IMG/VR virus record: IMGVR_UViG_3300035520_000607
Coordinates: 1 to 64,000 of that record
Strand: one strand, 5' to 3'
From: a virus
Taxonomy: Duplodnaviria; Caudoviricetes
DNA: 64,000 bases
The stretch's first letter is position 1. Every line of letters begins with the position of its first letter. The notes beneath the pieces are model-generated. The model was given only the letters and a program-made list of their open reading frames with translations, was not told the DNA's origin and did no database searches. Made by a program: the position numbers and the translations under genes. Below are positions 1,167 through 62,134 of this stretch, piece after piece.

Positions 1167-1814
1167 TTACTGACCTAATTTCCACTCTCCAACTCTAACT
1201 GGAATAGTTTTATATTCTTTTTCAAATTTCTTTAAAGCTGCTTTATAAGCATTCTTTTCTTTTGTTATATCTTCACCTTGTTCTTGGCGATAGAAAGCAT
1301 TTGCCGCTTCTTTTTCTCCTATATGTTCCTCTTCTAATATATTATACCAATTATTAAGTTCTTCTTGAGTAAGTTTTTCATAAGTATCATATTTAACTCA
1401 AAAATAATGACTACTCTTCTCTCCAAATTCTTCCATAGCGGGACCTACGTATCGTCTAGCTACAGCCGCATCACTAGTATGGTTATATTTTTCCATAGCG
1501 AAATCCGCAATCGCATTTCTAGCCATATGAGCTTTACTTTCTACAGTAAATTCCTTTGATAAATGAGTTTTTACATATTCATTATAATCTTCTTGCTTTT
1601 GCTTAGAGATTTTTAAACTTCTTGGTAATGGTTTATATTCTCCATAAATTTCATTAATTTTTATACGAATAGGTTTTCCTTCTAATATTTCATAATCATA
1701 GAATTCTGCTAACCATTCCATTAATTCTTCTCTTCTTCTATCATATTGAGATGTTGAGATTTTTAATAAAGGAAATAATTCCTCTTTTAGTTTGTAGATT
1801 CCTGTATCTACCAT
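1167..1814 (-). CDS. Hypothetical (possibly DNA-binding/replication) protein, 215 aa with TGA=Trp at 1398-1400
   Basis: Frame stays open for 76 further codons after the TGA (HYF-W-VKYDTY...VGEWKLGQ, TAA at 1167); RBS GAAGG upstream. Confidence 0.75.
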
Positions 1815-1843
1815 ATTATTACCTTCTTTCTTTAAAATGCCTG

Positions 1844-2146
1844 ACCGAGACTTACGAGGATCTTACACAATTTTTGTCATACCACTATTATTATTATAGG
1901 ATATGACAACTTTCTGCAAAGATGCTGCTTGACCGACATCAGTCTTTCGGTCTTATTATCATATAAAAAATAACAAAGATAAATTCATCATTTTTGACCT
2001 AATAATATCAAAAAATATATATGATTTATAAATTCTTTACAATTTACTATAAAGAGTTTGATAAAAATACACATTTTTGCTAGAAGGATAGAGAACCGAG
2101 ACTTACGAGGATCTTGCACAAATTTTTGTCATACCACTATTATTAT
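1844..2146 (+). repeat. About 50-bp imperfect direct repeat (ACCGAGACTTACGAGGATCTT.CACAA.TTTTGTCATACCACTATTATTAT), two copies
   Basis: Copies start near 1844 and 2095; each includes or adjoins a TTGTCATA...TATGACAA inverted repeat. Confidence 0.85.
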
Positions 2147-2929
2147 GACAAAAAAATCAACCCGATTTTTCCTTTTCTCTACTGACCTAAAAAAATATGG
2201 TATTTATAGTATTTATCTAAAATACCATTTCCTTATATGTTTTAAGTTGCAACAAAAGTAGCAAAATATATTATATTATATAGAGTTTACCAAAAATATT
2301 GTAAGTATTTAACTTACTAACCTCGCAGCTTTCTATTATGCGGAGATGCCCCTAATGAAACATACCCCTAGATAAAAGATCTTTTAACAGGTTCCCGCAT
2401 TATACCCCAATTAAATAAAAAAATTTTACCACACTTTTTTATTTGAGTTTAATGTGTGGTAAAAAAATTTATCTAGAAATATTACAATATATTACATAAA
2501 TAATACAATTAGCGCTAACGCGCATCTCTGATAAGGAAACATAAGGGAGATACCTCTAATAAGATTATGTTTTAATTAGTGTGTATTCATTTTAAATACA
2601 CAATAGATACTTTACTATAAAAATTGACATTGACAAGTGAATATCAATATAATATAATATATATTATTGACTAAAAATATGACAAAGTCAAATAAAATAA
2701 AAGCTTCAGCTAACGCTGAACCTTTTTTGTCGGTCGTGTGCTAAGGCACACTCCCTCCATCAGTCAAGAGTAAAGATAGGAATGTGGTAATGGGTAACGA
2801 AGGGAATATAAAATAATAGATGGCGGTCGGTGCACACCCATCACATAGTTTTATTAAATATATACACTCATACCTCTATTTTTACTACTTCTATTTTACT
2901 ATTTTATTAATTCACTCCATTTTGCTATT

Positions 2930-3658
2930 TTATGTTCTTGCGTTATTAAAATCTTGTTGCTCTGCATCTTTAATTAATAATGTTCCCTTAGTTATTTGAC
3001 ATCCTAATTGATATTCTAAATCCGCCTTAAAAGACATAAAACCCGCCTGATTTAATCCTTTAAGTTCACAACTTAAATCATATGCCTCCTCTTTAGTTAT
3101 TTCTCCTGCTTCAACCATTTCTCTTATTAATAATTCTTTTTCTTCATCTGTAGAAAAATATTTTTTCATTAACTTCTTTTTTATCTCTTGTTCTTCTTGC
3201 GTAAATTCTTTTAAAATACAAGAGCCATCTTCATTATAATATACCTTACATCATAAATAAATACATTGTCCTAATTGTCCAGCTGATGTAAAAGGTTTTC
3301 CATAAAGCATATTGCGTGCATCAAGAGTATACCTATATGCGGTTGATTGTTCTACCATTAATTCATTCTTATGTTTTCTATATATCTTCTTAGAAACATT
3401 TTTACAGTTATCTAATCCTGATTCATCCCATTCTTCATCAAGAGCTCCCAATATAATTTTTTTAGCTTTACTACCCCCTTTAATATACTCTTCATTTTTT
3501 ATTGCGGTTATCTCTATACCCCCATAGACTTCTTCAAAATCAGCATAGTCTCTCAACTCTTCAAGCTTATCTTCTTTACTATTTCTAAAACCTCCATAAC
3601 TTAATCCAAATCATTGCGCTAATTCTTTAGTAGTCATTTTTCCTAATCTTAATTTCAT
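2930..3658 (-). CDS. Hypothetical HTH-like protein, 242 aa with two TGA=Trp (3611-3613, 3251-3253)
   Basis: Track ORFs 2930..3169 and 3251..3556 are in one frame; ATG 3658 follows AAGGAGG; N-term MKLRLGKMTTKELAQ-W-FGLSY is HTH-like; loosely resembles 1167..1814. Confidence 0.8.
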
Positions 3659-4070
3659 ATTTTTTCCTCCTTATTACAACTTAAAAAATTCTTGTAATAA
3701 ATTATCAAACTTTGTCCTATTTTGTAATAAAAAAGTTGTCATATTTTTGTTCACTCCCTATATTATACCCGTTTACTAAAAATATGACAACTTATTAATT
3801 TTAGCCGAATTTAGACAAAAATAATTATTTTTCCTACCAAATGTCAGTTGTAATAAAATTGACTAATATATATTATATTATTATAATAATAAGAGTCAAC
3901 AAAAATGTTACAACTTAATATGCGGGAATGCAGTACTTCGTACAGCACTCCCTTCAGGTCGAAATAAACCAACTTATCGCTTCGCTCAAGTAGGTTTATT
4001 TCTCTACAAGAGCATAAGAAAAAAGTAAGGTTAATCCTTACTTTCTACAATAGCAATAGATACATTGCTT

Positions 4071-4445
4071 TTAGATGCGGGAATCATTATCCCAAACATA
4101 ATTTTTAATGCGGTTACCGCTTCTATCATCATCTTTTTCATATTGATACCTATTGCCTACAACTTTAAGTGATGCGGCAATACTTTCATTTAATATTTTA
4201 TAATCTAAATTAGAAAACCCTAATACTGAATAAGCCATTTCCGCATCATTATAACTAACTTCATAATAGTTACCCATTTCATCTATTAAGAGGTCTTTTG
4301 TAAAGATATGGTGGTTATCCTTATCTTCAAATCCAGTATATATGCCTATTGAATTATATATGACTATTTGATTAGCAATAACATTATCACTCGTTCTTTC
4401 ACCATATATCCAATTCATACTATCTATTGATATTCCTCTATACAT
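4071..4445 (-). CDS. YopX-like protein
   Basis: YRG...WIYG, YTGFEDKD..IF..D and KVVGNRY motifs. Confidence 0.75.
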   Translation of the reverse strand: MYRGISIDSMNWIYGERTSDNVIANQIVIYNSIGIYTGFEDKDNHHIFTKDLLIDEMGNYYEVSYNDAEMAYSVLGFSNLDYKILNESIAASLKVVGNRYQYEKDDDRSGNRIKNYVWDNDSRI

Positions 4446-4446
4446 A

Positions 4447-14764: not shown

Positions 14765-14859
14765 TGGCACGCCCCCAAGGGCTTGAACCTTGACCCGCGG
14801 GTTTGGAGCCCGCTACCCGAATTTTGAAGATTCGTGTGCTACCATTACACTAAGGGCGT
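14765..14859 (-). tRNA. tRNA-Trp(UCA) opal-decoding, with a second Trp(CCA) anticodon arm in the variable position
   Basis: ACGCCCT/GGGGCGT acceptor, G73, CCA; arm 1 CGAAT-CTTCAAA-ATTCG; arm 2 GCGGG-CTCCAAA-CCCGC; T arm CAAGG-TTCAAGC-CCTTG. Confidence 0.85.
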
Positions 14860-15868: not shown

Positions 15869-15943
15869 TGGCAGGGGCGCTAGAACTCGAATCCAGATAC
15901 CTAGTTTTGGAGACTAGGGTCCTAACCATTAGACGACACCCCT
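15869..15943 (-). tRNA. tRNA-Trp(CCA)
   Basis: Canonical cloverleaf, loop CTCCAAA, G73, CCA. Confidence 0.95.
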
Positions 15944-24075: not shown

Positions 24076-24146
24076 AAGTATTTACTTTTGATTTTTTTTA
24101 TTTTTTATATTATGATATTTATATAAAAAGAAAGAAGGTATGTAGA

Positions 24147-39347: not shown

Positions 39348-39420
39348 TAAAATAATTAAAAAATAAATAGAGTGATTAATATTCACTCTATTTATTTTAG
39401 AAAGGATAAATTTAACAGAT

Positions 39421-41612: not shown

Positions 41613-41662
41613 TTGATTATAAATGAAAAAAATAATATAATATAATTATAGAAAGGAACTTT

Positions 41663-42274: not shown

Positions 42275-42372
42275 TTTTGGTCAATTAAGATTAAAGTTGA
42301 CACTGTAAAAAAATTTTGATATAATAATTATATGAAAAAAAGAAATAATAAATAAAGAAAAGGAGAAATTAT

Positions 42373-43308: not shown

Positions 43309-43339
43309 TTAAACCCCTTTCAATTAAAGGAGAATAAAA

Positions 43340-44338: not shown

Positions 44339-44445
44339 GAGATAAAAGGAGAAAGGAGAGAAGATTATTAATATTTAAAATAATCTTCTCTTTTTGATTT
44401 TAATTTAAAAAAATGATATAATATTTATATAGAGGTGATAAATAA

Positions 44446-44961: not shown

Positions 44962-44972
44962 GAAGGTGAATT

Positions 44973-46514: not shown

Positions 46515-46536
46515 TCTGGAATGGAGGGAACAATAG

Positions 46537-47628
46537 ATGAAATTAAAAGAGTTATCTGAAAAAATTAAAAATGATTTAGATATTAATCAAGTGTTTGATC
46601 TATTGTTCTCTTTTGGCGGCGATCCAGTTATTCAAAATAATATGATAATATCAAGAACAATATGTCACGGTGGAGACTCTCATAAATTATATTATTATGA
46701 TAACAGCAAACTTTTCAAATGCTATACTGCTTGTTCATCTAGCTACGATATTTTTGAATTAATCATTAAAATTAAGAAAGTAAATGGTGTAGAAATTTCA
46801 TTGCCGCAAGCTGTTAATTTTATAATTAATTATTATGGTTTAACAATAGAAAATGAAAATTTTCAACAAGAACGAGAAGAACTTCAAGACTGGAAAATTT
46901 TAAATAAATATGAGAAAAATAACTTAGATAAAAAAGAAGAAAAAATTGTAGAGTTCAAATTTTATGATAAAAAAATTCTAGAGCATCTTCCGCATCCGCA
47001 TATAATTCCGTGGGAGCGAGAAGGAATTAATAGAACTGTTATGGAGTATGATGGGATATGCTATGACCCTTCTAACCAAGGTATAGTGATTCCGCATTAT
47101 AATATAGATGGAAAATTAATTGGGATAAGAGAAAGAACATTAATAAAAGAAAATGAAGATAGCGGAAAATATAAACCCGCAATATTAAATTATAAAATGT
47201 ATAATCATAGTTTAGGTTTTAATTTATATAATCTTAACAATAGCAAAAATATAATAAAAAAGATAAAGAAAGTTATTGTATTTGAGGGCGAGAAGAGTGC
47301 GCTCCTATACCAGAGTTATTTTGGAATAGATAATGACATATCAGTCGCGGTATGCGGTAGCAATTTAACTAATTATCAAGTTGATCTACTATTGTCATTA
47401 GGGGTAAGTGAGATAATTATAGCGTTTGACAAACAATTTAAAGAGATTGGAGACGGCGAGTGGAAAACTTGGACAAAGAAATTAACTGATATAAATAAGA
47501 AATATAGTAGTAAAGTTTTAATAAGTTTTATATTTGATAAAGAAAATATGCTAGGATATAAAGATTCACCAATCGACAAAGGTAAGGAAATTTTTTTGGA
47601 ATTGTTTAAAAAAAGAGTTATAATATAA
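46537..47628 (+). CDS. dnaG: DNA primase
   Basis: Zn motif TICHGG..CYT.C; IPH, TOPRIM FEGEKS and IIIAFDK. Confidence 0.85.
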   Translation: MKLKELSEKIKNDLDINQVFDLLFSFGGDPVIQNNMIISRTICHGGDSHKLYYYDNSKLFKCYTACSSSYDIFELIIKIKKVNGVEISLPQAVNFIINYYGLTIENENFQQEREELQDWKILNKYEKNNLDKKEEKIVEFKFYDKKILEHLPHPHIIPWEREGINRTVMEYDGICYDPSNQGIVIPHYNIDGKLIGIRERTLIKENEDSGKYKPAILNYKMYNHSLGFNLYNLNNSKNIIKKIKKVIVFEGEKSALLYQSYFGIDNDISVAVCGSNLTNYQVDLLLSLGVSEIIIAFDKQFKEIGDGEWKTWTKKLTDINKKYSSKVLISFIFDKENMLGYKDSPIDKGKEIFLELFKKRVII

Positions 47629-47645
47629 AAAAAGGAGAATGATTA

Positions 47646-49469
47646 ATGAAATATAAATTAAGGAAAGAAATAAATTCTAAGTATTCTACAATAGAAACAA
47701 TACTTACTAACCGCGGGATTCCTTTAAATGAAGTATCTCACTATCTTAATACTACTGATGCAGATATTAATGAACCTGAAGATCTAGGTGAAGACAACCT
47801 TAAGGCGGCTGCCGCATGTCTTGTAAATCATATATCTAAAGCAGATTCAATTTTATGCATCGTAGACTGCGATTGCGATGGTTTTACCTCTTCCGCGCTA
47901 TTAATTAACTATTTACATGATTTATTCCCTTCATATATCGAGTCTGGAGGTTTAAAATGGTATGTTCACGATGATAAAACTCATGGTTTATCTGATTGTA
48001 TGGGATATATTAATTTACATGATTTTAAATTAGTTATATGCCCAGACGCAGGAAGCAACGATATAGAATATCATAGGGAATTAAAAGAAAAAGGTATAGA
48101 TGTTATAATTTTAGACCACCATTTGGCAGACAAGGTTAGTGAAGATGCTATTATAATCAATAACCAATTATGTGATTATTCTAATAAAGAATTGTCAGGT
48201 GTTGGAGTTACATGGCAATTTTGTAGATATTTAGATAAAAAATTAGATTATAATTGTGCAAATTGTTATCTAGATCTTGTTGCTCTTGGGCTAACGGCCG
48301 ATATGATGAGTTTAACATCAATAGAAACTAAACATTTAATTCATAAAGGTTTTGAACCTGATAATATACATAATCCATATATTTATGAAATGTGGCAAAA
48401 GAATAAATTTAAGTTAGGTGACCATATTACTTCGATAGATGCAGCTTTCTATATAGTTCCTATGATTAATGCAGTTCAAAGAAGCGGAACAATAGAAGAA
48501 AAAGAATTATTATTTAAATCAATGCTTAAATATGAAGCTTTTGAAATGATAGATTCTACTAAGAGAGGGCATTCCGCAGGAGAACAAGAGAGATTAGTAG
48601 ACCAAGCCGTTAGAATGTCTAATAATGTAAAAAACAGACAAACAAGAGTTCAAGATTCAAGTATGGAGACTTTAGAAGCAATAATTGAAGATCAAAATTT
48701 ATTAGACCATAAAGTTATCTTACTATTGTTAGAACCAGGTGACGTAGATAAAAATGTAGCTGGGTTAATTGCTAATAAATTAGCTAATAAGTATCAAAGA
48801 CCTTGTTGTATTTTAACTAAAACTGTAGAAATAGATCCTAATAAAATGACTATGGAACAGGATGAAGATAAAATTATAGTATCTTCAAAAGCAAGATATC
48901 TATATCAAGGTAGTGCAAGAGGTTATGAATTAACTGGTGTAACTAATTTTAAAGATATATGTGATGAATGCGGTGCGGAATGGACCGCGGGCCATCAAAA
49001 TGCATTCGGGTTATGCATCGCAGAGGACAAGGTTGATGAATTTCTATCCAAGGCTGATAATTGTTTATCAAGCATTTCCGCAGAACCTATATATTATGTA
49101 GATTATATATATAATGGGGTTAATGTAAATCCGCAAGATATATTTACAATAGCAGAATTAACTAATCTATGGGGTAAAGATATGGATGAAGCGGAAATAG
49201 CTATTAAAGATTTAAAAGTTAGTAAAGATATGGTTCAGATATATAGAAAAACAAATAATACATTAAAAATAAGTTTACCTAATAAGATTAGCATAATGAA
49301 ATTTAATGCAACAGATGAAGAATGTGAAAGATTAGAAAATCAATCTGGAGCTTATATTCAATTAGATGTAGTTGGCACTTGTAAAATAAATGAATTTAAT
49401 GGATGTAGATTACCGCAAGTGTTTATAACAGATTATGAGATTACTGGAGAAGGTAAATATCTATTTTAG
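47646..49469 (+). CDS. recJ: RecJ-like ssDNA exonuclease (DHH)
   Basis: DCDCDG..S, HG, PDAG, LDHH, LSGVGV, GSARG, GHQNAFG. Confidence 0.9.
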   Translation: MKYKLRKEINSKYSTIETILTNRGIPLNEVSHYLNTTDADINEPEDLGEDNLKAAAACLVNHISKADSILCIVDCDCDGFTSSALLINYLHDLFPSYIESGGLKWYVHDDKTHGLSDCMGYINLHDFKLVICPDAGSNDIEYHRELKEKGIDVIILDHHLADKVSEDAIIINNQLCDYSNKELSGVGVTWQFCRYLDKKLDYNCANCYLDLVALGLTADMMSLTSIETKHLIHKGFEPDNIHNPYIYEMWQKNKFKLGDHITSIDAAFYIVPMINAVQRSGTIEEKELLFKSMLKYEAFEMIDSTKRGHSAGEQERLVDQAVRMSNNVKNRQTRVQDSSMETLEAIIEDQNLLDHKVILLLLEPGDVDKNVAGLIANKLANKYQRPCCILTKTVEIDPNKMTMEQDEDKIIVSSKARYLYQGSARGYELTGVTNFKDICDECGAEWTAGHQNAFGLCIAEDKVDEFLSKADNCLSSISAEPIYYVDYIYNGVNVNPQDIFTIAELTNLWGKDMDEAEIAIKDLKVSKDMVQIYRKTNNTLKISLPNKISIMKFNATDEECERLENQSGAYIQLDVVGTCKINEFNGCRLPQVFITDYEITGEGKYLF

Positions 49470-49600
49470 ATTGGGGTGAATTTGGTCGAAGTTTCAAAAT
49501 AAAAAGTGACTTTGGAAATTTTTATCCCAATTTTTTTATTTAATTGATTTTCAATTAAATAAATGATATAATTATTATAGAAATAAAAGGAGAATTAAAT

Positions 49601-50788
49601 ATGGAATTAAATAAAAAACAAAAGGAGGGATTAAACATAGCCGTTGAGAGATATAAAAGTGGTAAAAAATATACTATTATCAGCGGCTATGCCTAGGTAG
49701 GTACTGGTAAATCAACCCTAGTTAAATTTATCATTGCCGCATTACCTAATATAGACCCAGAAGAAGATGTTGTTTATACTAGTTTTACAGGAAAAGCCAC
49801 CCAAGTTTTATCTAAAAAAGGCAATAAAAATACTAGTACATTACATAAATTATTATTTGAAAGTCGCCCTCAAAAAGATGGTACTTATTTCCATGTTCCA
49901 GTAGATAAGATTGATTATAAAATAGTTATAGTAGATGAAATATCTATGGTTCCTAAAACTTTAATTGATAGACTGCTAAGTCACGATATACACATGATAG
50001 GTCTCGGGGATCCTTTCCAGTTACCACCAGTTAATAAAAATGAAGATAATCATTTATTAGACGATCCGCATATATTCTTAGATGAGATTATGCGTCAAGC
50101 CGCTGAAAGTGAAATTATTCAATTAACTATGAAAATAAGAAGTGGAGAAAAAATTGAAAACTTTAAAGGTAAAGAAGTTCAAGTTATTAATAAATCTGAA
50201 TTAACAACAGGTATGTTATTTTGGGCAAATCAAGTTCTTGTAGCAACTAATGCAACTAGAAAATCTATTAATAATCAAATGCGCGAATTACTAGGACATG
50301 GAGATTTGCCTGAAACAGGAGATAAGATAATTTGTTGCCGCAACTATTGGAATTGTATTGCAGATGATGGTTCTGCTCTTGTAAATGGAACAATAGGAAC
50401 ATTAGATTATACATATCCTTCTTTCCTTAATATGCCTAAATTTATAAATCCTAAAATAGTAGATACTATTAATGGAGTTTTTATTGGCGAATGCGGGGAA
50501 GACTATGGAGAGCAAATAATTGATAAAAAGATGCTTATGGAGGGTGAAAAAAGCTTAGACTGGGCAAATGAATATAAATTATTAACAAATAAAAAATATA
50601 CTGATTTAATACCTGCGGAGTTCGCTTATGGATACGCAATCACGACCCACCGTGCACAAGGTAGTGAGTGGGATAAAGTCCTTGTTATTGAAGAAGATTT
50701 TCCTTTTGATAAAGAAGAGCATGCGCGCTGGCTATATACAGCCCTAACGCGTGGAAGCAAAAAAGTAGTCTTAGTAAAAAATGATTAA
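49601..50788 (+). CDS. RecD/Dda-like SF1 helicase with in-frame TAG at 49694-49696
   Basis: ATG 49601 after AAAGGAG, in frame with track ORF 49946; GYA*VGTGKST, FTGKA, TLHKL, VDEISM, GDPFQLPPV, YAITTHRAQGSEW, LYTALTR. Confidence 0.8.
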
Positions 50789-50805
50789 GTAAAGGAGTAA
50801 TTAAT

Positions 50806-51645
50806 ATGAGTTTCTCAATTTGGAATCCTGTACACGGATGCATGGGTAAAAGTGAAGGTTGTGAGCATTGCTATGCAAAAACCATCGATGATAGATGGGG
50901 AAGAAATTTTTTTGAATGTAAAAAGTTAACAAGCAGTTTCAAATATCCAATTCAAAAAGATAGAAATGGTAATTATAAAGTTCCATCTGGTATGGTACTT
51001 AGAGTTTGTATGAATTCAGACTTTTTCTTCGAGGGATTAGACCCATTTAGAGAAGAATGCTGGAAGATAATGGCGCAAAGACCTGATGTTATATTCTATC
51101 TTTTGACTAAGCGACCAGAAAGAGTATCAGAATGCTTACCTACATGGTGGGATCAAGAAAAGTATCCTAATATAATGATAAATGTAACTTGTGAAAATCA
51201 GAAACGCGCAGATGAGCGTTTACCAATTTTAAAAACTTTACCTTTCAAGAGAAAAGGAATTATGTGCGCCCCTCTATTAGAAGATATTAATTTAGAGCCT
51301 TATATTTCAGAAGGTTGGATAGAGAATGTAAACTGCGGTGGGGAGAACTATAGCGGCGCCCGCGCATGTCATTATGAATGGGCTAAACATATTAGTGATC
51401 AATGTGCTGCCGCAAATGTAAAATTTACTTTTATAGAAACTGGAACTAATTTTTGGAAAGATGGTATTAAACAACCTAATGATATATCTAAAGTCCGCCA
51501 AGCTGAAAAGGCAAGAGCACTAAATATTAACGTTAAGGAAGAACAAATGCTTGGTATTTATCAACCTAAATGGAGTTCCGCATGTTATAAATGCGGCAAC
51601 CAACCTATTTGTCAAGGATTAGACTCAAGCGGTAATTGCAGTTAG
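50806..51645 (+). CDS. DUF5131 (Gp37/Gp68-like) protein
   Basis: WNPVHGC...SEGCEHCYA, SDFF, LLTKRPER, GGE. Confidence 0.85.
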   Translation: MSFSIWNPVHGCMGKSEGCEHCYAKTIDDRWGRNFFECKKLTSSFKYPIQKDRNGNYKVPSGMVLRVCMNSDFFFEGLDPFREECWKIMAQRPDVIFYLLTKRPERVSECLPTWWDQEKYPNIMINVTCENQKRADERLPILKTLPFKRKGIMCAPLLEDINLEPYISEGWIENVNCGGENYSGARACHYEWAKHISDQCAAANVKFTFIETGTNFWKDGIKQPNDISKVRQAEKARALNINVKEEQMLGIYQPKWSSACYKCGNQPICQGLDSSGNCS

Positions 51646-51701
51646 TTGATTTTAAATAAAAATAATGATATAATAATATTATAGAAAAAGGAGAAATATA
51701 A

Positions 51702-51947
51702 ATGAATAAAAAATATGTATTTAAAGAAGTAATCAATGGAAGATGGGCTATATGGTCTAAAGACATTAAAGACAAAGGAAAAGTTAAAGTTTTTAGAATC
51801 ATAGATCTATATTCTACAAATAGAGAAACAAGATTTGTCTTTGCTTATAAAAATATGGATGAAGCAAAAATTCAAACATCTTTATCTAATAAAATTCGTA
51901 ATTTTTATAGAAATAATAAAAACACATTCTTTGTAAAACAAAATTAA
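51702..51947 (+). CDS. Hypothetical protein
   Basis: ORF with promoter and RBS. Confidence 0.6.
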   Translation: MNKKYVFKEVINGRWAIWSKDIKDKGKVKVFRIIDLYSTNRETRFVFAYKNMDEAKIQTSLSNKIRNFYRNNKNTFFVKQN

Positions 51948-51973
51948 TATAATAAAAAATTAGGAGGGATAAA

Positions 51974-54900
51974 ATGACTGGAAGAGTTGACTTACATAAT
52001 CATACAAGGTATTCTAATTTAAGACTTAGAGATGCTTTAGCAACGCCAGAGCAGTTAATTGATAGAGCTATTGAATTAGGGCTATCTGGAATTGCTATCA
52101 CAGACCACGAGACTGTTGCAGGACATATTAAAGCAAATCAATATGCTCAAAAGATTGCAGAGACATCTCCTGATTTTAAAGTTATATTAGGAAATGAAAT
52201 TTATTTAGTAGATGAACGACCTTCAGAGAAACATTGGCATTTTATATTAATAGCAAAAGATGCTGAAGGGCATCATCAGCTAAGAGAGCTATCTTCTTTA
52301 GCATGGTTGAACAGTTATTCTTCAAAAGGAATGACAAGAGTAGATACTTTAAAAGAAGAGCTAAAAGAAATAGTAGAGAAGAATCCTGGACATTTGATCG
52401 CGAGTAGTGCGTGCATAGGCTCAGAGGTTGGACAGAATATTCTAGACCTAGTAGCCGCTGAAGCAACAGGGGATAAGATATTAGAACAGAATGCTCATAA
52501 TAATATAGTTAATTATATTTTATGGTGTAAAGATGTTTTTAAAGATGACTTTTATATTGAAGTTCAGCCAGGAACTAGTAGAGAGCAAATCATAGTGAAT
52601 AAAAGGCTAGCCTCAGTAGCAAAATGTTTTGGAGTTAAGATGATCCCGACTTCTGATACTCACTATTTGAAAAAAGAAGATAGATATGTTCATAAAGCAT
52701 TTTTAAATAGTGAAAATAAAGAAAGAGAAGTAGATGCCTTTTATCAAGATACTTACCTACATTCAAATGAAGAGATGATAGAGAAGTTTAAAGAATCAGA
52801 TTATTCAGAAGATTTTGTCAATGAAATGTTTGAAAATACTTTAGAAATATATAATAAAGTAGAAAATTATTCTTTAGCTCATGCTCAACAAGTTCCAAAA
52901 GTAGATGTTGATTATTATCCTAAGAAGAATCCTCCAGAAGGTTTAGAAAAATATAATACTCTTTCTGAGATGTACCAATCAGAAGATGAAATTAATAGAT
53001 ATTGGATTAATAAATGTATAGATCGATTAAAAGAAATAAATAAATTTAATGAAGTGTATCTAGACGAATTAGAGGAAGAAGCAGAAGTTAAAAAAATTAT
53101 CGGAGAAAAATTAGATACAAATATGTATGCTTATCCAGTATGCTTAGCTCATTATATTAATTTAATGTGGAATTGCGGAAGCTCGATTGGAGTAGGAAGA
53201 GGGTCTGCTTGTTCAGCTTTAAATCATTATCTTTTAGGCATTACTCAATTAGATAGCATTGAGTGGAATTTTCCTTTCTTTCGATATATGAATAGGGACA
53301 CAGATGGACTAGGAGATATAGATATAGATGTTTGCCCTAGTAAAGTTCAAAAAATTATTTCCGCAATAAGAGAAGAAAGAGGACAAAAATTTAAAAAAGA
53401 AATAGAGAATCCTATTTTTAGAGAAAATCTTGGAGCTGTCTATGTTTGTACTTTTGGAACAGAGTCTACAAAGAGCGCAATTCTTACTGCGGCAAGGGGA
53501 TATCGATCAGAAGAATATCCAGAAGGGATAGATATTGATACTGCTCAATATCTTAGCTCTTTGGTCCCAAGCGAAAGAGGATTTGTCTGGAGTATTCATG
53601 ATGTAGTTTATGGAAATGAAGAAAAAGATAGAAAACCTGTAAAAATATTTGTAAATGAAATAAAACAGTACCCTGGATTGTTAGAAATAATAGAGGGTAT
53701 CGAAGGATGCATATCTCGAAGAGGAAGACACGCCTCAGGAGTATTATTTATGGGAGAAGACCCTTTTGAATTTAATGCTTTTATGAAAACTCCTAGTGGA
53801 GAAATCGTAACTCAATATGATTTACATGATGCAGAATGGGCTGGTAGTGTAAAGATGGATATTCTTGTAACAGAAGTTCAAGATAAAATAGTTCAAACTT
53901 TAAAATTTCTTCAAAGAGATGGCTTACTAGATCAAAATCTAAATTTAAGAGAGCTATATAATAAATATCTTCATCCAGATGTTTTACCTCTTGATAAAAA
54001 AGAGATCTGGAAAGTTATTCAAGAAGCTTCTACATTAGACTTATTTCAATTAGATTCTGATATTGGAAGACAAGGAGCAAAAAAAGTAAAACCTTCAAAT
54101 ATAAATGAATTATCTTCAGTAAATGGTCTTATTAGATTAATGACAACAGAAAAAGGTGCAGAATCTTGGCTAGATAAATATACGAGATTTAAAAATGATA
54201 GAAAAGAAATAGTTAAAGAAATGGATAGATATGGACTTACTTTAAAAGAAAAGATAGCTTTAAATAGATATTTAGAAATTACTTATGGAATTGGTATTTC
54301 ACAAGAACAATTAATGAAAGTTTTAATGGATGAAGATATTTGTAATTTCTCTCTTAAAGAAGCTAATAAAGCTAGAAAAGTAGTTTCAAAGAAGAAGATG
54401 AGCGAAATTCCTAATTTAAAACAAAAGGTAAAGGAAACCGCAAAGAGTGAAAATTTATTTAATTATGTATGGGATTATGTTGTAGGCCCTGGACTAGGAT
54501 ACTCTTTTTCAGATATTCATAGTTTATCTTATTCTTTTATAGGTTTCCAAACTGCTTATTTAGCAACTAATTGGAATCCTATTTATTGGAACACCTCTTG
54601 TTTAATTGTAAATAGTGGAAGTCTTGAAGAAGAATCTGATTTTGAAGAAGATGAAGATGGAGAGATTATAAAGAAAAAAGAAAAAAGTAGTGATTATGGA
54701 AAAATTGCTAAAGCTATTGGAGATACTCGATCAAGAGGAATTAGAGTTTCATTAATAGATATAAATAAATCTAGTTATAGTTTTGAGCCAGATATAGAAA
54801 ATAATGAAATCTTATTTGGAATGAAAGCCTTAAGTAATGTTGGAGGTCCAGTTATAGAACAAATAATTAGCGGCCGCCCTTACTATGGAATTGCAGATTT

Positions 54901-55924
54901 TATGAATAGATGTCCATTAAATAAAAGTGCAATGTTCTCTTTAATTAAAGGTGGAGCTTTTGATAAATTAGAAATTGAATGGGCAAAAGAACTTAACATA
55001 GAACCAAGAAAATTAATCATGATTTATTATATATCAAAAGTATGTGAAGCTAAAAAGAGAATTACATTACAAAATTTTAATGGCTTAATTCAACATAATT
55101 TAATACCTGCGGAATTAGATTTACAAAAGAAAGTTTATAACTTTACAAAGTATTTAAAAGCAAATAAAAAAGTAGGAAAATATTATGTATTTGATAATAT
55201 TTGTGAAGATTTTTACAACAAATATTTTGATGAAGATCAACTTGAAATTATAAATGGTTTAACTTGTATTCAACAAATTAAATGGGATAAAATTTATCAA
55301 GATACAATGGATAAAGTTAGAGATTGGATAAGAGATAATCAAGAACAAATCTTAAATGACTATAACAATATTTTATTTAAAGAGTGCTGGGATAAATATG
55401 CAATAGGTAATATAAGTTCGTGTGAAATGGAAGCATTATGTTTTTATTATCATAAACATGAATTAGCAGATGTAAAAGTAGACAAATATGGAATTGTAGA
55501 TTTTAATACTTTATCTCCTGAATCTGAAGTTGATTATTTGTTTAAGCGCGGCGGTCATGACATTCCTATTTATAAGATAAATAAAATTATTGGAACAGTA
55601 ATAGGGAAAAATGATACTCGTTCATCAATTACGCTATTAACAACAACAGGTGTAGTAACAGTAAAATTTACAAAAGAATATTTTGCAATGTATAACCGTC
55701 AAATGTCTGAGAAACAAGAAGATGGAACTAAAAAAATTGTTGAAAAAGGTTGGTTTACAAGAGGAACTAAGCTATTGGTTGCTGGGTATAGAAGAGATGA
55801 CTCATTCGTAGCAAAAACATATAAAAGCAATGGTTTCCACCAATTATATAAAATAGTAAAAATATTAGATAACGGAGAAATAGAATTAGTTCATGATAGA
55901 GCTGGTTCAAGTGAAGAAGAGTAG
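51974..55924 (+). CDS. dnaE: DNA polymerase III alpha subunit
   Basis: PHP HNHT.YS, ITDHE, GNEIY; GRGSA, DIDID, HASG, KMDIL, YSFS..HS..Y. Confidence 0.95.
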   Translation: MTGRVDLHNHTRYSNLRLRDALATPEQLIDRAIELGLSGIAITDHETVAGHIKANQYAQKIAETSPDFKVILGNEIYLVDERPSEKHWHFILIAKDAEGHHQLRELSSLAWLNSYSSKGMTRVDTLKEELKEIVEKNPGHLIASSACIGSEVGQNILDLVAAEATGDKILEQNAHNNIVNYILWCKDVFKDDFYIEVQPGTSREQIIVNKRLASVAKCFGVKMIPTSDTHYLKKEDRYVHKAFLNSENKEREVDAFYQDTYLHSNEEMIEKFKESDYSEDFVNEMFENTLEIYNKVENYSLAHAQQVPKVDVDYYPKKNPPEGLEKYNTLSEMYQSEDEINRYWINKCIDRLKEINKFNEVYLDELEEEAEVKKIIGEKLDTNMYAYPVCLAHYINLMWNCGSSIGVGRGSACSALNHYLLGITQLDSIEWNFPFFRYMNRDTDGLGDIDIDVCPSKVQKIISAIREERGQKFKKEIENPIFRENLGAVYVCTFGTESTKSAILTAARGYRSEEYPEGIDIDTAQYLSSLVPSERGFVWSIHDVVYGNEEKDRKPVKIFVNEIKQYPGLLEIIEGIEGCISRRGRHASGVLFMGEDPFEFNAFMKTPSGEIVTQYDLHDAEWAGSVKMDILVTEVQDKIVQTLKFLQRDGLLDQNLNLRELYNKYLHPDVLPLDKKEIWKVIQEASTLDLFQLDSDIGRQGAKKVKPSNINELSSVNGLIRLMTTEKGAESWLDKYTRFKNDRKEIVKEMDRYGLTLKEKIALNRYLEITYGIGISQEQLMKVLMDEDICNFSLKEANKARKVVSKKKMSEIPNLKQKVKETAKSENLFNYVWDYVVGPGLGYSFSDIHSLSYSFIGFQTAYLATNWNPIYWNTSCLIVNSGSLEEESDFEEDEDGEIIKKKEKSSDYGKIAKAIGDTRSRGIRVSLIDINKSSYSFEPDIENNEILFGMKALSNVGGPVIEQIISGRPYYGIADFMNRCPLNKSAMFSLIKGGAFDKLEIEWAKELNIEPRKLIMIYYISKVCEAKKRITLQNFNGLIQHNLIPAELDLQKKVYNFTKYLKANKKVGKYYVFDNICEDFYNKYFDEDQLEIINGLTCIQQIKWDKIYQDTMDKVRDWIRDNQEQILNDYNNILFKECWDKYAIGNISSCEMEALCFYYHKHELADVKVDKYGIVDFNTLSPESEVDYLFKRGGHDIPIYKINKIIGTVIGKNDTRSSITLLTTTGVVTVKFTKEYFAMYNRQMSEKQEDGTKKIVEKGWFTRGTKLLVAGYRRDDSFVAKTYKSNGFHQLYKIVKILDNGEIELVHDRAGSSEEE

Positions 55925-56046
55925 GAATAGCCTTCTCTTTCTTCTTCTCTGGTCAATATTGGACAATCTATTTAAAAGTTTTTTGATACATAATATCGGG
56001 TAAATATTTATAAACCCCTTAAAAATAATTAAATAATTGAGGAGGA

Positions 56047-58275
56047 ATGAAAATGTTACAAGTTCAAAAACGCGATGGTAGAATCGTAGAGTTTAATGAA
56101 CAAAAAATTATGAATGCGATACTTGCCGCATTTAAAGAAGTGGATGGAGAGATTAATGAATATGCTCAAACAAAAGCTGAAAACATTGCAAGTTATATTA
56201 GAGGTTACTATGAAGATGTAGAAGAAATTCCTAATATAGAAGAAATTCAAGACCTCGTTGAAAAAGGTTTAATGTCAACGAAGAGGAAGGATGTAGCGAA
56301 AGCTTATATTCTTTATAGAGAAAACAGAACGAAAGCAAGAGGGAATATAATAGACAAAGAAGTTCTAGAATTTTTAGATGGCGCAAGTGAATATTGGAAT
56401 ACTGAGAACTCTAATAAAAATGCCCAAATTGTTACAACCCAAAGAGATTATTTAGCTGGAATTTTATCTACTGATATTGCAAGAAGAGTTATTTTACCAA
56501 AAGAAGTTGTAGAAGCTCATGACGCAGGAATTATACATGAACATGATATGGATTATTTATCTCAAAATGCATTAACTAACTGTTGTTTAATTAATTTAAA
56601 TGATATGTTACAAAATGGAACTGTAATTAATGGTATTATGATAGAAAAACCTCATAAATTACTTACTGCTACAACTATTGCTACTCAAATAATTTTAGGA
56701 GTATCTTCAAGTCAATATGGTGGATGTAGTGTTTCTTTAGCACATTTAGCACCTTTTGTTAGAGATAGTTACAATTATTATTATAATAAATATATGAGAA
56801 GAACTAATAATGAACCACTATCTGAGACATTTGCAATGGAAGATTTAAAGAAAGAAATTGAAGCAGGAGTTCAAACTTTTAATTATCAAGTCAATTCAAT
56901 GACGAATACCAACGGTCAGTCCCCTTTTCTCACGGTATTCATGTACCTAGGCGAGACAGAAGAATTCAAAGATGAATTAGCTATGTTGATAGAAGAATTT
57001 TTAAAACAAAGAATTGAAGGAATGAAAAATGAAGTTGGCGCTTATATTACCGTTGCTTTCCCTAAATTAATTTATGTCCTTGAAGAAGATAATATTAATG
57101 AAGATAGTAAATATTGGGAATTAACTAAATTGGCAGCTAAATGCACTGCAAAAAGACTTGTTCCTGATTATATTTCTGAGAAAATGATGAAAAAAATTAA
57201 AATTAATAAATATGGAAAAGGAGATTGCTTTGCTGTAATGGGTTGTCGTTCCGCATTATCTCCATGGAGTGTTGAAGGAAATCCTTCAAAAGCAAAAGAC
57301 TATGTTGAAGGAGAAGGAAAATATTATGGAAGATTTAATTGCGGAGTTACTACAATAAATCTACCAGATGTGGCATTTTCATCAAAAGGAAATTATGATA
57401 AGTTTTGGGAATTAATGGAAGAAAGAACAGAATTATGTCATAAAGGCCTTCAAGCAAGAATAAAAAGGCTATTAAATGTAACAAGTGATATAGCGCCTAT
57501 CTTATGGCAACATGGAGCTTATGCTAGACTAGAAAAAGGAGAAAAACTAACAAATTTAATTTATGGAGGTTATTCCACTGCTAGTTTAGGATATGCAGGA
57601 TTATATGAATGCACAAAATATATGACTGGAAAATCACATACGGATGGAGCAGAAGGAGAAAAATTCGCGCTAGAAGTAATGCAATTTTTAAATAAAAAAT
57701 GTAACCAATGGAAAGAAGCTGAAAATATAGGTTATTCTATTTATGGTTCACCTATTGAATCAACAACTTATAAATTTGCTAAATGTTTGAAAAAAAGATT
57801 TGGAGAAGATATTTTTATAAAATTAGATGGAAAAGATAGAAATTACATAACAAATAGTTTCCACGTTCCAGTATTCGAAGCTATTGATCCTTTTACTAAA
57901 TTATCTATTGAGGCTAAATTCCAAGAACTAAGCTCTGGAGGTATGATTTCTTATGTAGAGAGTGCCGATATGAGCAGAAATACAGAAGCACTTCTTGAAG
58001 TAATGAAGTTTATTTATAATAATATCATGTATGCGGAAATCAATACTAAATCAGATTATTGTCAAGTCTGCGGTTATGATGGTGAAGTCAAAATCGTAGA
58101 CATAGATGGTAAACTTGATTGGGAATGCCCTCAATGTGGTAATATGGATCATAACAAAATGAATGTAGCTAGAAGGGTATGTGGATATATATCAACAAAC
58201 TTCTTTAATCAAGGAAGAACAGATGAAATAAACAATAGATATGTTCATTTAGATAATCATCAATTAGGAGAGTAA
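56047..58275 (+). CDS. nrdD: Anaerobic ribonucleoside-triphosphate reductase
   Basis: ATP cone (KRDG), NCCL, MGCRS, YITNS.H, CQVC/CPQC, RVCGY. Confidence 0.95.
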   Translation: MKMLQVQKRDGRIVEFNEQKIMNAILAAFKEVDGEINEYAQTKAENIASYIRGYYEDVEEIPNIEEIQDLVEKGLMSTKRKDVAKAYILYRENRTKARGNIIDKEVLEFLDGASEYWNTENSNKNAQIVTTQRDYLAGILSTDIARRVILPKEVVEAHDAGIIHEHDMDYLSQNALTNCCLINLNDMLQNGTVINGIMIEKPHKLLTATTIATQIILGVSSSQYGGCSVSLAHLAPFVRDSYNYYYNKYMRRTNNEPLSETFAMEDLKKEIEAGVQTFNYQVNSMTNTNGQSPFLTVFMYLGETEEFKDELAMLIEEFLKQRIEGMKNEVGAYITVAFPKLIYVLEEDNINEDSKYWELTKLAAKCTAKRLVPDYISEKMMKKIKINKYGKGDCFAVMGCRSALSPWSVEGNPSKAKDYVEGEGKYYGRFNCGVTTINLPDVAFSSKGNYDKFWELMEERTELCHKGLQARIKRLLNVTSDIAPILWQHGAYARLEKGEKLTNLIYGGYSTASLGYAGLYECTKYMTGKSHTDGAEGEKFALEVMQFLNKKCNQWKEAENIGYSIYGSPIESTTYKFAKCLKKRFGEDIFIKLDGKDRNYITNSFHVPVFEAIDPFTKLSIEAKFQELSSGGMISYVESADMSRNTEALLEVMKFIYNNIMYAEINTKSDYCQVCGYDGEVKIVDIDGKLDWECPQCGNMDHNKMNVARRVCGYISTNFFNQGRTDEINNRYVHLDNHQLGE

Positions 58276-58276: not shown

Positions 58277-58762
58277 ATGAGATATGCTCAAATAAGAAAA
58301 ATGGATATAAGTAACGGATGCGGAATTGGGGTATCATTGTTTACTCAAGGTTGCCGCATCCATTGTAAAAATTGTTTTAATAAAGAAATATGGAATTATG
58401 ATGGCGGAAATAAATGAACTGATGAAGTATGCAATAACTTTATAAAACTAATTGAACCTGATTACATTACAAGAGTAAGCATACTTGGAGGAGAACCTCT
58501 AAGTGAAGAAAATTTAAAAGATTTAAAAAATTTATTTTCATTAATTAAAGAGAAATACCCAAATAAAAAGATATGGTTATATACTGGCTATATTTATGAG
58601 AATTTAAAGCAAGAGCAAAAAGAGATTGCGGAAATGGCTGACTATTTAGTAGATGGTCCTTATAGAGATGAGGAGCGCGATTTAACATTGCATTATCGCG
58701 GTTCCCGCAATCAAAGAATTATAGACATGAGGAAGGCACTAGAAGAAAAAGGAATTAATTAA
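58277..58762 (+). CDS. nrdG: NrdD activase (radical SAM), TGA=Trp at 58415
   Basis: MRYAQIRKMDISNG.GIGVSLFTQGC.IHC.NCFN..IWNYDGGNK-W-T, LGGEP, WLYTGY, VDGPY, RGSRNQRII; missing from ORF track. Confidence 0.92.
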
Positions 58763-58796: not shown

Positions 58797-59219
58797 ATGA
58801 GAGAAATTACGCGAGAGATGATAAAAGAATATCGTATTAATAAAATTAAATATGATTTTATGGGCTACACTTTTAATAGATATGAAGAATTGAGTTTTCA
58901 TCATTTGATTGTACCTAGGAGAGAATGTAAAGCTCAAGGCCTTGGTGATGGATACTATTTTTGAAATGGAGCTATTTTAAATCAAGAAACTTCACATGAT
59001 TATCTTCATATTATAGAAAGAATTGATAGACAAGCTTTCTTACAAATAACAGATATAATGATATGGGAAAATCAACAAAAAGAAATAGATTTAAAAAGCT
59101 TAAAAGATATTAGACAAATATTACTATTATTTGAAGATACCTATAAAAATGAAAAAAATAAATCTGGACAAAAGATTCTAAAAAGACAATTTATAAACAA
59201 TAGGATAGATTTATCATAA
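58797..59219 (+). CDS. HNH-like protein, TGA=Trp at 58962
   Basis: Open 140 codons with TGA read through; SFHHLIVPRR...GYYF-W-NGAIL...SHDYLH; no clear RBS. Confidence 0.65.
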
Positions 59220-60469: not shown

Positions 60470-60481
60470 GGAGGAAATACT

Positions 60482-60751
60482 ATGGGAAAAAGTATATTAG
60501 TAGATTGTAAAATGTTTACTAAACAACAAAAAGTTTTTGCCTTAGATGAAGAACATGGAATAACTGGAATTATAGATACTGAGATAGATAAAATCCCTGA
60601 AACTGTTATGTCTTTATCAAGAGATATTGAATGTAATGTAGTTAATATAAAAGGTTTAAAAGCTTATACAAAAGGGATAGAGAAAAATATAAAAGAATAT
60701 GAATTAAGTAAATATAACGAAAATAAACTAGTTATTAACTTAATTAAATAA
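60482..60751 (+). CDS. Hypothetical protein
   Basis: ORF with AGGAGG RBS. Confidence 0.7.
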   Translation: MGKSILVDCKMFTKQQKVFALDEEHGITGIIDTEIDKIPETVMSLSRDIECNVVNIKGLKAYTKGIEKNIKEYELSKYNENKLVINLIK

Positions 60752-60758
60752 AAGGAGA

Positions 60759-61022
60759 ATGAATATGAAATATTTAATTAGTACAACAGAAATATATAGA
60801 GCGGATTCAGAAGCTGAGGCTATAAAAATAATTGAAGATGCTAAAGCAGATACTCACTATGTTCTTTCAAAATATTCAAGTCAATATAAAGAAAGAAAAC
60901 AAAAAGGTGAAGTAGTAGATTCTTGGTATAAAGTTTCTTTAACTAAGTCATTTACTGATGAGAAAGAGCCTCAATTTGAAACAAGAGTAGAATATACAAA
61001 TAGTATGGAAAGTGCTTTTTAG
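60759..61022 (+). CDS. Hypothetical phage protein
   Basis: ORF with AAGGAG RBS. Confidence 0.7.
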   Translation: MNMKYLISTTEIYRADSEAEAIKIIEDAKADTHYVLSKYSSQYKERKQKGEVVDSWYKVSLTKSFTDEKEPQFETRVEYTNSMESAF

Positions 61023-61034
61023 AAAGAGGTTTAA

Positions 61035-61520
61035 ATGGAAAATACAGATATTATTATAAATGATGATGATAATTATATTAATACTATGATTAAATATAAA
61101 AAATTAAATGAATTAGCAAAAGAACCTAAACATGGAAGTGCGGATGCTGCCGGTTACGATCTTTATGCGGCAACCGCAGAAGATATATCTATTCCCGCAC
61201 ATACAACTGTTAAAATAGATACTGGTTTAGCTTTTGCTTTACCTAAATATACATTTGGAGCTATCTTTGCTAGAAGTGGTTTAGCTACTAAGCAAGGCCT
61301 TAGACCAAGTAACTGTGTCGGTGTCGTAGACGCGGATTACCGAGGTCCAGTCATTGTGGCACTTCATAATGATACAGATCAAGAGCAAATAGTTTCCGCA
61401 GGTGACAGAATTGCACAACTAGTATTATTGCCATATTTACCAATGTCTTTTATTGAATCTGATAATTTAGATGAAACTGAACGTGGAGATGGTGGTTTCG
61501 GTTCTACAGGGCTTAATTAA
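61035..61520 (+). CDS. dut: Trimeric dUTPase
   Basis: AAGYDL, ARSGLA, GVVDADYRG, GDRIAQL, RGDGGFGSTG. Confidence 0.95.
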   Translation: MENTDIIINDDDNYINTMIKYKKLNELAKEPKHGSADAAGYDLYAATAEDISIPAHTTVKIDTGLAFALPKYTFGAIFARSGLATKQGLRPSNCVGVVDADYRGPVIVALHNDTDQEQIVSAGDRIAQLVLLPYLPMSFIESDNLDETERGDGGFGSTGLN

Positions 61521-61627
61521 TAATTAGATGAAGTATTTATCTTCATCTTTTTTTATGTAAAAATTTCTTGACAAGGCTAGATAAAATATGATATAATAAA
61601 CTTGGAAATAAATAAGGAGGTGTCCAT

Positions 61628-62134
61628 ATGAGTATATTGAGTCTCGATTTATCCACAAAGAGTTCGGGGTGAGCAATCTTTGAAGGTGATGAATTAAAAA
61701 ATCATGGATGCATAACATCTTCATCAACAGATTTAATTAAGCGTATTCATATAATGATAGATGCTATTGATGAGATATTAAAAAATAATGATATAAAAGA
61801 AATCATAGTAGAGGAAGTCCGCCCTGAAGGAGGATATGGAGTTGGGAATATAAAAACAATGAAAGCCCTTATGTATCTTCAAGCGGGATTAGAATTTCTC
61901 ATTCATGATAATTATAAAAATAAAGTAGAAATTAATTATATATATCCTAGTTCTTGGAGAGCTTCTTGCGGTATTAAAAACGGAAGAGGAATAAAAAGAA
62001 CCTCATTAAAAGAGGCAGACATTGCTTTTGTTCAAGAGAAATATGGTATTACTGTAAATGATGATGAGGCGGATGCTATTTGCATTGGCTATGCTCAAAA
62101 TCATATTGAAAGTAACGAAATAAATTGGGGATAA
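61628..62134 (+). CDS. RuvC-like Holliday junction resolvase, TGA=Trp at 61670
   Basis: ATG 61628 after AAGGAGGT: MSILSLDLSTKSSG-W-AIF; IIVEE, PSSWR, DDEADAICIG. Confidence 0.85.

Follow-up and report, generated by a model that had tools for sequence, protein, structure and literature searches.

Uneven use of TGA as a probable tryptophan codon in a phage genome that encodes its own tRNA(UCA)

The first 64,000 nucleotides of the tailed-phage record IMGVR_UViG_3300035520_000607 (Duplodnaviria; Caudoviricetes), here called the window, contain open reading frames (ORFs) that run through in-frame TGA at 17 positions, and their long core genes use TGG alone for tryptophan. What TGA means in this phage, and why it is present in some genes and absent from others, are the questions addressed here. 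An initial annotation of the window, made from its letters, described a sparse and uneven TGA-to-Trp recoding and attributed it either to a recent or partial move to code 4 (or a code-4 walled host) or to a switch that makes selected genes depend on a phage tRNA with a UCA anticodon, tRNA(UCA). We hold it to be quite likely that this is an Agate-type phage of standard-code Bacillota that reads TGA as tryptophan by means of its own tRNA(UCA), with a gene partition shaped by selection. The phage is siphovirus-like and comes from gut or rumen; its contig is 123,603 bp long, and the window is its first 64 kb, the early/replication half; GC content of the genome is 29.6%.

All 17 TGA codons are present at the coordinates first reported, each in frame with an ORF that requires read-through of TGA to stay open (TCA on the plus strand for genes of the minus strand). 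As the initial annotation also held, the other credible genes stop elsewhere: genes of at least 100 amino acids end in TAA (71) or TAG (26), and none needs a TGA stop. Genome-wide, tiled coding density rises from 0.81 under code 11 to 0.89 under code 4, compared with 0.84 when TAG is recoded. Nearly the whole gain lies at 65-100 kb, where code 4 lifts density from 0.70-0.82 to 0.92-1.0 and opens ORFs of 2349 and 2718 amino acids, the longer of which matches tape-measure families. Code 4 raises coding density in all five whole relatives as well.

Aligned codons speak to the meaning of TGA directly. The comparison set comprises 80 loci around homologues of TerL, 7 around NrdG homologues, 82 around homologues of a Mom-like protein and GIY-YIG nucleases, and five whole related genomes; every aligned codon was mapped back onto DNA, and column counts were pooled from about 85 related loci. 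Where this phage has TGA, the relatives mostly have TGG (181), TGA (109), Tyr (88) or Phe (31), with Cys once and Gly never among the leading residues. Where it has TGG, they have TGG 1278 times and TGA 416 times. Because TGA and TGG swap at aligned columns, both are tryptophan codons, interchangeable across the phage family, and these alignments show that TGA means tryptophan in this phage. Pfam domains span the TGA in NrdG, a GIY-YIG endonuclease and a RuvC-like resolvase, for which PDB sequence searches returned no usable homologue alignments. TGA and TGG codons show no difference in the base that comes after them (p 0.74). Twelve of the 17 sites are directly supported by comparison; four are weak or lack relatives, and one, at 20426, looks like a former stop.

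The best-supported sites lie in recognizable enzymes. The RuvC-like resolvase (61628..62134, plus strand) has TGA at codon 15 (61670), within its Pfam RuvC match, and in 26 relatives this column holds TGA 11 times, TGG 7, Tyr 4, Val 3 and Phe once. The anaerobic ribonucleotide reductase activase NrdG (58277..58762, plus) starts 2 nt past the NrdD stop and has TGA at codon 47 (58415), inside a Fer4_12 match (3.6e-42, residues 13-149). The relatives' column reads Phe (7), TGA (6), Tyr (4) or TGG (2), and NrdG carries TGA in 11 of 21 relatives. A 140-amino-acid protein of unassigned family (58797..59219, plus), for which we found no Pfam match over the curated cut-off and no PHROG match, has TGA at codon 56 (58962), where relative G001 has TGA and G003 has TGG. 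The Mom-family protein (33804..34955, plus; Pfam Mom, 3.4e-38) carries its TGA near the end, at codon 378 of 383 (34935). Because both relatives have TGG there, in genes that extend 3 codons further, this is best read as a true tryptophan codon.

Homing-type endonucleases account for much of the remainder. A GIY-YIG homing endonuclease (40292..41239, plus) has TGA at codon 91 (40562), within its Pfam GIY-YIG domain (residues 14-100), and the column contains TGG 67 times, Phe 3 times and TGA once. The 1.2-kb insert that holds this gene (40117-41336, plus) interrupts a transmembrane plus GIY-YIG nuclease gene; in five relatives both parts of the latter adjoin, with matches within 1-3 nt. The first part (39421..40116, plus) has TGA as its second codon (39424); a paralogue in G004 likewise starts ATG TGA, with an AGGAG ribosome-binding site ahead. 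The second part (41337..41612, plus) has TGA at codon 21 (41397), in the motif R-W-K-N-H, and the column holds TGG (14), Phe (6) or Tyr (3), reading Phe, TGG, TGG, TGA and TGG across five genomes. Rfam matched no group I intron model anywhere in 35.7-41.7 kb (E <= 0.1), and we therefore call this an insert of unproven type.

Two further adjacent endonuclease-like ORFs (36011-36262 and 36318-36908, plus) hold six in-frame TGA codons between a duplicate of the ligA 5' end and the full ligA gene. The 36453 column reads TGA/TGA in one comparison and TGG/TGA in another. The 36717 column is mainly Phe (16, with one TGG and one Tyr) and TGA in one whole genome, and the 36774 column is Tyr in 18 homologues and TGA and TGG in whole genomes. 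Homologues have Leu and Gln/Asp in the 36053 and 36149 columns, so that support for tryptophan is weak at these two sites. The initial annotation had cited family motifs that tryptophan would fit, and SSG-W-AIF in the resolvase and R-W-K-N-H at 41397 bear this out; VLR-W-G at 20426 and FGK-W-TV at 36053 find no support in the homologue columns. As to the flanking ligA sequences, an 80-amino-acid ORF (35781-36023, plus) is a copy of the ligA 5' end, and 36892-38832 (plus) encodes a complete 646-amino-acid LigA; relatives align to both ORFs at the same place. A ligA gene split by an intron was considered and rejected, as the second ORF is full length and the first duplicates its 5' end. The duplicate looks instead like the footprint of an endonuclease insertion.

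Five of the sites fall on the minus strand of the left arm. A 3D-domain protein resembling cell-wall hydrolases (20411..20944, minus; Pfam 3D), with a hydrophobic, signal-peptide-like N-terminus, carries TGA twice, as codon 23 (20876) and as codon 173 of 177 (20426). Alignments to the five best PHROG profiles (E 1.2e-18 to 2.8e-11) stop at residues 169-171, just ahead of codon 173 and within 1-2 positions of where the profiles themselves end, and we therefore read 20426 as an apparent former stop followed by an extension of 4 codons. The broader idea that many near-terminal TGA codons are fossil stops was rejected except for this site: the Mom-like position is TGG in relatives, and a tail-fibre TGA (codon 915) is enclosed by a PHROG domain extending to the protein end. 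A 242-amino-acid protein of unassigned function (2930..3658, minus) has TGA at codons 16 (3611) and 136 (3251), and the single relative available, G003, has TGA at the former column and TGG at the latter. Lastly, a 215-amino-acid orphan protein (1167..1814, minus) has TGA at codon 139 (1398), beyond which the frame stays open for 76 codons with no ATG; the next codon, GTT, is no start. No relatives of this gene or of the 3D-domain gene (sites 1398 and 20876) were found in IMG/VR or among 27 related genomes. Between the two left-arm genes that lie closest to the contig end, the 1.1-kb stretch 1815-2929, which the initial annotation took for an origin, has only short ORFs, with 4 TGA each, and probably encodes no protein.

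The presumed decoder of TGA is a 95-nt tRNA(UCA) at 14765..14859 (minus), the only tRNA in the phage with this anticodon. Its A1:U72 pair and G73 are as in tRNA-Trp, which agrees with the role that the initial annotation had assigned to it. The acceptor stem has 7 bp and the T stem 5 bp, and the label "SeC" given by ARAGORN is a reflection of the anticodon only. At the place of the variable arm stands a second hairpin, with a 5-bp stem and the loop CUCCAAA, which copies the anticodon loop of tRNA-Trp. This two-armed design is present in 15 of 15 related contigs (L214-L228) found by a pattern of D arm and UCA loop, and the exact CUCCAAA loop in 11 of them plus this genome. Both arms show compensatory changes, with 98.7% of cells paired, so the comparison shows the predicted structure to be conserved. 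We found no gene for a release factor (RF-1 domain) or a class-Ib synthetase (TrpRS family) in the phage. As it lacks a TrpRS-family synthetase, the host TrpRS would have to charge tRNA(UCA), and the second arm may serve as a handle for that enzyme. Our literature search found no description of a two-armed tRNA(UCA). An ordinary phage-encoded tRNA-Trp(CCA) lies at 15869..15943 (minus).

Two relatives differ in their suppressor tRNAs. In G004, the two-armed tRNA(UCA) (L112:2986-3288; G004:22986-23288) has an insert of about 207 nt in the anticodon loop, between T and CA, and standard tRNA finders miss it because the insert interrupts the anticodon. G002 is TGA-recoded by coding density (0.73 to 0.89 under recoding), yet it encodes a tRNA with a CUA anticodon, a TAG suppressor, at L126:12477-12552 (G002:32477-32552); a UCA tRNA went undetected there, and relaxed ARAGORN searches were too noisy for suppressors in G002 and G005.

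With TGA read as tryptophan, its distribution over the genome calls for explanation. The genome consists of a left arm (1-22.9 kb, minus) that carries the tRNA array, a replication block (23-62 kb, plus), a late block (64.6-114.6 kb, minus) and a short right arm after it, and GC skew turns at about 23 kb and about 62 kb. The late block contains a sigma-factor-like gene, TerL, the portal, an HK97-fold capsid protein, the 2718-amino-acid tape measure, the 2349-amino-acid protein and tail proteins. TGA makes up 33% of the tryptophan codons in the late block (64-115 kb), 17% in the left arm and 10% in the replication block (genes of at least 80 amino acids; 7% for genes of at least 100), and the difference between 33% and 10% is significant (Fisher 1e-6). 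Recoding looks sparse in the window, with 18 TGA to 174 TGG codons in 71 credible genes, because the window covers only the early half; the description as sparse is thus a window effect, and the late block outside it is the main recoded set (12 TGA in the tape measure, 6 in the 2349-amino-acid protein, 3-7 in tail proteins and 4 in TerL).

Genes within the window differ as well. Fourteen long core genes hold 84 tryptophan codons and not one TGA (hypergeometric 1.6e-5, for a gene set picked post hoc), and the unevenness of TGA exceeds chance. The TGA-free core genes, assigned by Pfam, lie on the plus strand within 23044..58275 and include GyrB (27960-29858), GyrA (29877-32261), LigA (36892-38832), DnaB (44973-46514), RecJ (47646-49469), DnaE (51974-55924) and NrdD (56047-58275). 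Equally free of TGA is a lysis pair at 32676..33716 (plus), consisting of a holin-like ORF with one transmembrane segment (32676-32972) and an endolysin with CHAP and PG_binding_1 domains (32982-33716). Codon counts therefore agree with the earlier statements that the core genes and the lysis pair use TGG alone and that lysis genes are not the recoded set in this genome.

The same distribution recurs in relatives and is shown to be non-random. In the five whole relatives, the TGA share in late and replication genes is 10/0 (G001), 42/3, 48/24, 67/16 and 71/30 (G004) percent, and the late share is always the higher. Summed over six genomes, TGA:TGG is 0:49 in LigA, 0:27 in GyrB, 0:19 in GyrA and 9:100 in DnaE, as compared with 63:58 in the tape measure, 13:9 in the resolvase, 12:11 in NrdG and 7:1 in the endonuclease ORF at 36318-36908. 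Late genes are not uniform either. The gene at 105374-106399, to which 354 PDB matches at E <= 0.001 assign an HK97 fold, has TGA at 3 of 168 tryptophan codons in up to 44 relatives, versus 141 of 406 for TerL. Counted over as many as 80 relatives, TGA has a share of 0.02 in this capsid gene, 0.00 in its neighbour, 0.17 in the portal gene, 0.35 in TerL and 0.48 in the gene at 112305-113513. At conserved tryptophan columns, TGG and TGA swap freely in TerL and neighbouring genes and almost never in the capsid gene.

Could this pattern be a product of youth? Other two-fold A/G codon pairs in this genome are 80-98% A-ending, and TGA supplies 7-33% of tryptophan codons. Where Lys, Glu or Gln columns are conserved, the third base of the codon in this phage says almost nothing about the one in a relative, and we therefore take synonymous A/G sites to be effectively saturated between this phage and its relatives. 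A neutral TGA would already be the major tryptophan codon, yet it is a minority, which argues that selection against TGA persists. The deficit appears to be kept by selection that bears most on the replisome and capsid genes and less on late genes of low copy number. The initial suggestion of a partial move to code 4 fits the gradient among relatives, from 10/0 to 71/30; a recent change, however, cannot alone explain the excess of TGG because the synonymous A/G sites are saturated.

We propose that TGA acts here as a conditional and probably inefficient tryptophan codon, which would be read only after the suppressor tRNA has appeared, and then against competing host RF2. Such inefficiency and dependence on the suppressor would lead selection to remove TGA from early and heavily translated genes. 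It would be purged from genes needed before or independently of the suppressor, namely those for the replisome, ligase, gyrase and NrdD, and likewise from the most heavily translated virion genes, those for the HK97-fold major capsid protein and its neighbour. TGA would be tolerated or favoured in low-copy late proteins such as the tape measure, tail proteins and TerL. The same may hold for enzymes that are possibly harmful early or in excess: the homing and GIY-YIG endonucleases, the RuvC-like resolvase, the Mom-like modifier, the secreted 3D-domain wall hydrolase and the NrdG activase. The genetic code of the host and the timing and efficiency of suppression are what we infer in this proposal.

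One extension of this proposal we offer tentatively, as a possibility that is more doubtful than the proposal itself. TGA may be a dose limiter more than a late-gene timer, weakly read, kept from high-throughput genes such as that of the capsid, and retained in enzymes that are harmful if over-made (nucleases, the resolvase, the Mom-like modifier, the wall hydrolase and the radical-SAM activase); TGA and TAG recodings that arose independently in sister lineages would converge on the resolvase, and the CCA-looped "decoy" anticodon arm would let the host TrpRS charge the tRNA. In four TAG-recoded members of the family, G017, G008, G007 and G027 (L270, L271, L272 and L276), the resolvase gene contains 3-6 in-frame TAG codons; that of G008 has 4 TAG versus 2 CAA/CAG codons, and its flanks have 6:25.

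Several observations weigh against the proposal. Counts pooled over related genomes are phylogenetically non-independent, and their p-values are indicative only. Avoidance by the replisome is not absolute, as G004 and G005 have 24-30% TGA in replication genes and RecJ has a TGA:TGG ratio of 11:18 in relatives. The resolvase is not enriched over its late-gene flanks (TGA:TGG 42:54 versus 159:173, p 0.49, in a crude comparison over 26 relatives), and the TGA enrichment of NrdG in relatives is no more than about twofold (p 0.03). The suppressor could be expressed early if a sigma-70-like site 33 nt ahead of tRNA(UCA) is functional, although sites of this kind occur here no more often than chance predicts for such AT-rich DNA. 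Links to metagenome-assembled genomes (MAGs), used below for the host, rest on binning, and eight MAGs carry discordant taxon labels. Finally, the holin-like/endolysin pair of this phage sits in the replication block and lacks TGA, whereas the Agate preprint stresses a recoded lysis cassette.

The alternative closest to our proposal is a strict temporal switch, in which the sparse TGA codons serve to keep a dedicated regulon of NrdG, the resolvase, the endonucleases and two left-arm proteins off until tRNA(UCA) appears. These genes do hold TGA within an otherwise TGA-free block, and over six genomes TGA is commoner in the resolvase, NrdG and the endonuclease than in the replication block (Benjamini-Hochberg-adjusted 1.6e-4 to 7e-4). 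TAG-recoded relatives place TAG in the same resolvase gene, and the Agate preprint proposes such a switch for an intron endonuclease (bioRxiv 10.1101/2021.08.26.457843). Of the special set named in the initial annotation, however, NrdG retains a modest enrichment and the resolvase, with the same share as its flanks, does not. Avoidance of TGA by the late-made capsid protein is not predicted by a purely temporal rule, gating NrdG alone, 2 nt after the NrdD stop, would leave NrdD inactive, and one TGA per gene would give leaky control only; we regard a strict switch as possible, though the odds are against it. A neutral and recent or partial drift, in which TGG-to-TGA changes accrue faster in fast-evolving genes with no functional partition, is less likely again. 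It would account for the gradient among relatives, and the TGA-rich genes do include fast-evolving tail genes and mobile endonucleases. It is at odds with a TGA share far under the 80-98% A-ending of comparable pairs at saturated sites, with flips that are common in TerL and its neighbours and very rare in the capsid gene, and with an odd tRNA(UCA) shared by diverged relatives.

Could the host itself use code 4, with TGA read as tryptophan and no RF2, and the phage simply share its code? The genome is AT-rich, and some related contigs are binned with MAGs of Bacilli or Anaeroplasmatales, a class that also includes the code-4 Mycoplasmatales. In Mollicutes, TGA is the major tryptophan codon, and their phages need no apparatus to lyse a cell wall. 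Here TGA makes up 7-33%, against the 80-98% that equilibrium would predict; it is avoided by core and capsid genes, and the phage brings its own tRNA(UCA). The endolysin, with its CHAP and PG_binding_1 domains, has the means to bind peptidoglycan; prfB scores over the curated cut-off in 4 of 5 MAGs that contain related phage contigs (binning links); and the closest cultured TerL relatives are phages of Enterococcus, Geobacillus and Alicyclobacillus, standard-code Bacillota. The code-4 host entertained in the initial annotation thus appears very unlikely, and the endolysin, the TerL relatives, prfB and a TGA frequency far from equilibrium indirectly favour a walled, standard-code Bacillota host. 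Least probable of all, to the point of being negligible, is that TGA stands for selenocysteine, glycine (code 25), or a programmed stop or read-through. The ARAGORN call and the position of 20426 at the end of homologous families would suit it, but homologue columns are TGG or aromatic with hardly a Cys and no Gly, Pfam domains cross the TGA sites, and the tRNA has the 7-bp acceptor stem, A1:U72 and G73 of a tRNA-Trp. Selenocysteine tRNAs have 8+5 or 9+4 acceptor/T stems, and selenocysteine sites align to Cys or Sec.

Our proposal of an Agate-type phage with a selection-shaped partition places this genome beside known systems. As described in the preprint by Borges et al. (bioRxiv 10.1101/2021.08.26.457843), Agate phages (~127 kb) keep replication genes in the standard code and recode structural and lysis genes. 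They carry a TGA-preferring intron endonuclease in an early gene, their GC skew is read as bidirectional replication, and close relatives use other codes; the TGA-preferring families named there are the intron endonuclease, a tail protein and a lysis-cassette protein with a transmembrane domain. The present genome is similar in size (123 kb), has relatives from cattle-rumen assemblies, reads TGA as tryptophan with a suppressor tRNA(UCA), and combines standard replication genes with recoded structural genes. A TGA-preferring endonuclease in an early gene, a GC skew with two turning points, and close relatives on code 11, code 4 or TAG recoding complete the likeness. It fits every Agate feature compared, the comparison covering size, source, code pattern and endonuclease behaviour. 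On that description the pattern, including TGA-rich intron endonucleases, is already published and ordinary for the group. No mention is made, in the parts of the preprint consulted, of NrdG, the resolvase, the Mom-like gene, avoidance by the capsid gene or the two-armed tRNA, all of which are present here.

Comparison with other recoded phages sets the decoder apart. Jade phages, as the same preprint describes them, are TGA-recoded with a code-change module of tRNA(UCA), TrpRS and RF1 (bioRxiv 10.1101/2021.08.26.457843), and the TrpRS:tRNA(UCA) pairs AP1 and HF2 have been shown to insert tryptophan at UGA (bioRxiv 10.1101/2025.10.30.685624). Our phage would likewise use a phage tRNA(UCA) to read UGA as tryptophan against RF2, but unlike Jade phages it has no TrpRS-family synthetase or release factor. 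As in crAss-like, Lak and phAss-1 phages (PMC9523058, PMC10607447), stop recoding is concentrated in late genes and served by a suppressor tRNA, and TerL of phAss-1 is 43% identical to that of this phage; in those phages, by contrast, the codon is TAG read as Gln, and the hosts of crAss-like and Lak phages are Bacteroidota. Mycoplasma and Spiroplasma phages also read TGA as tryptophan, with a code 4 that matches the host (PMC11210395), whereas here TGA is a minority codon, partitioned by gene and accompanied by a phage tRNA and a peptidoglycan-binding endolysin.

These results have a practical consequence, in that this genome and its IMG/VR relatives need gene calling under code 4; otherwise about 30 genes are fragmented, including those for the tape measure, tail proteins, TerL, NrdG and the resolvase. 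What is added at the level of genes is that TGA avoidance reaches the major capsid protein, that the deficit appears to be selected despite saturated synonymous sites, and that the lysis pair is free of TGA. These additions bear on the choice between timer and dose control and leave basic understanding unchanged.

Some features of the genome lie outside this argument. Because the first 233 bases (window 1-233) recur at the contig end (G000:123372-123603), one indel apart, we read the genome as probably complete, at about 123.4 kb, and either terminally redundant or circularly assembled; the source record classes it as linear and 83% complete. A blastn comparison of gyrB-gyrA with GenBank phages gave trivial matches only. 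In the left arm, a 547-amino-acid protein with DUF2828 and DUF7788 domains (12251-13894, minus) has no TGA here and a TGA:TGG ratio of 1:48 in relatives. Inside the tRNA array, Rfam places an OLE (ornate large extremophilic) RNA at 16697-16935 (minus; 105.6 bits versus a gathering threshold of 50, model positions 283-595 of 616). Other OLE RNAs are known in Bacillota that are anaerobic or extremophilic; one in a phage is unexpected and gives a further hint of the host. The array also contains a full-length tmRNA match (17793-18232, minus; 51.8 bits, E 1.6e-17), and two Rfam tRNA matches that ARAGORN does not call lie at 14690-14760 and 16923-16997 (both minus; 50.6 and 45.9 bits).

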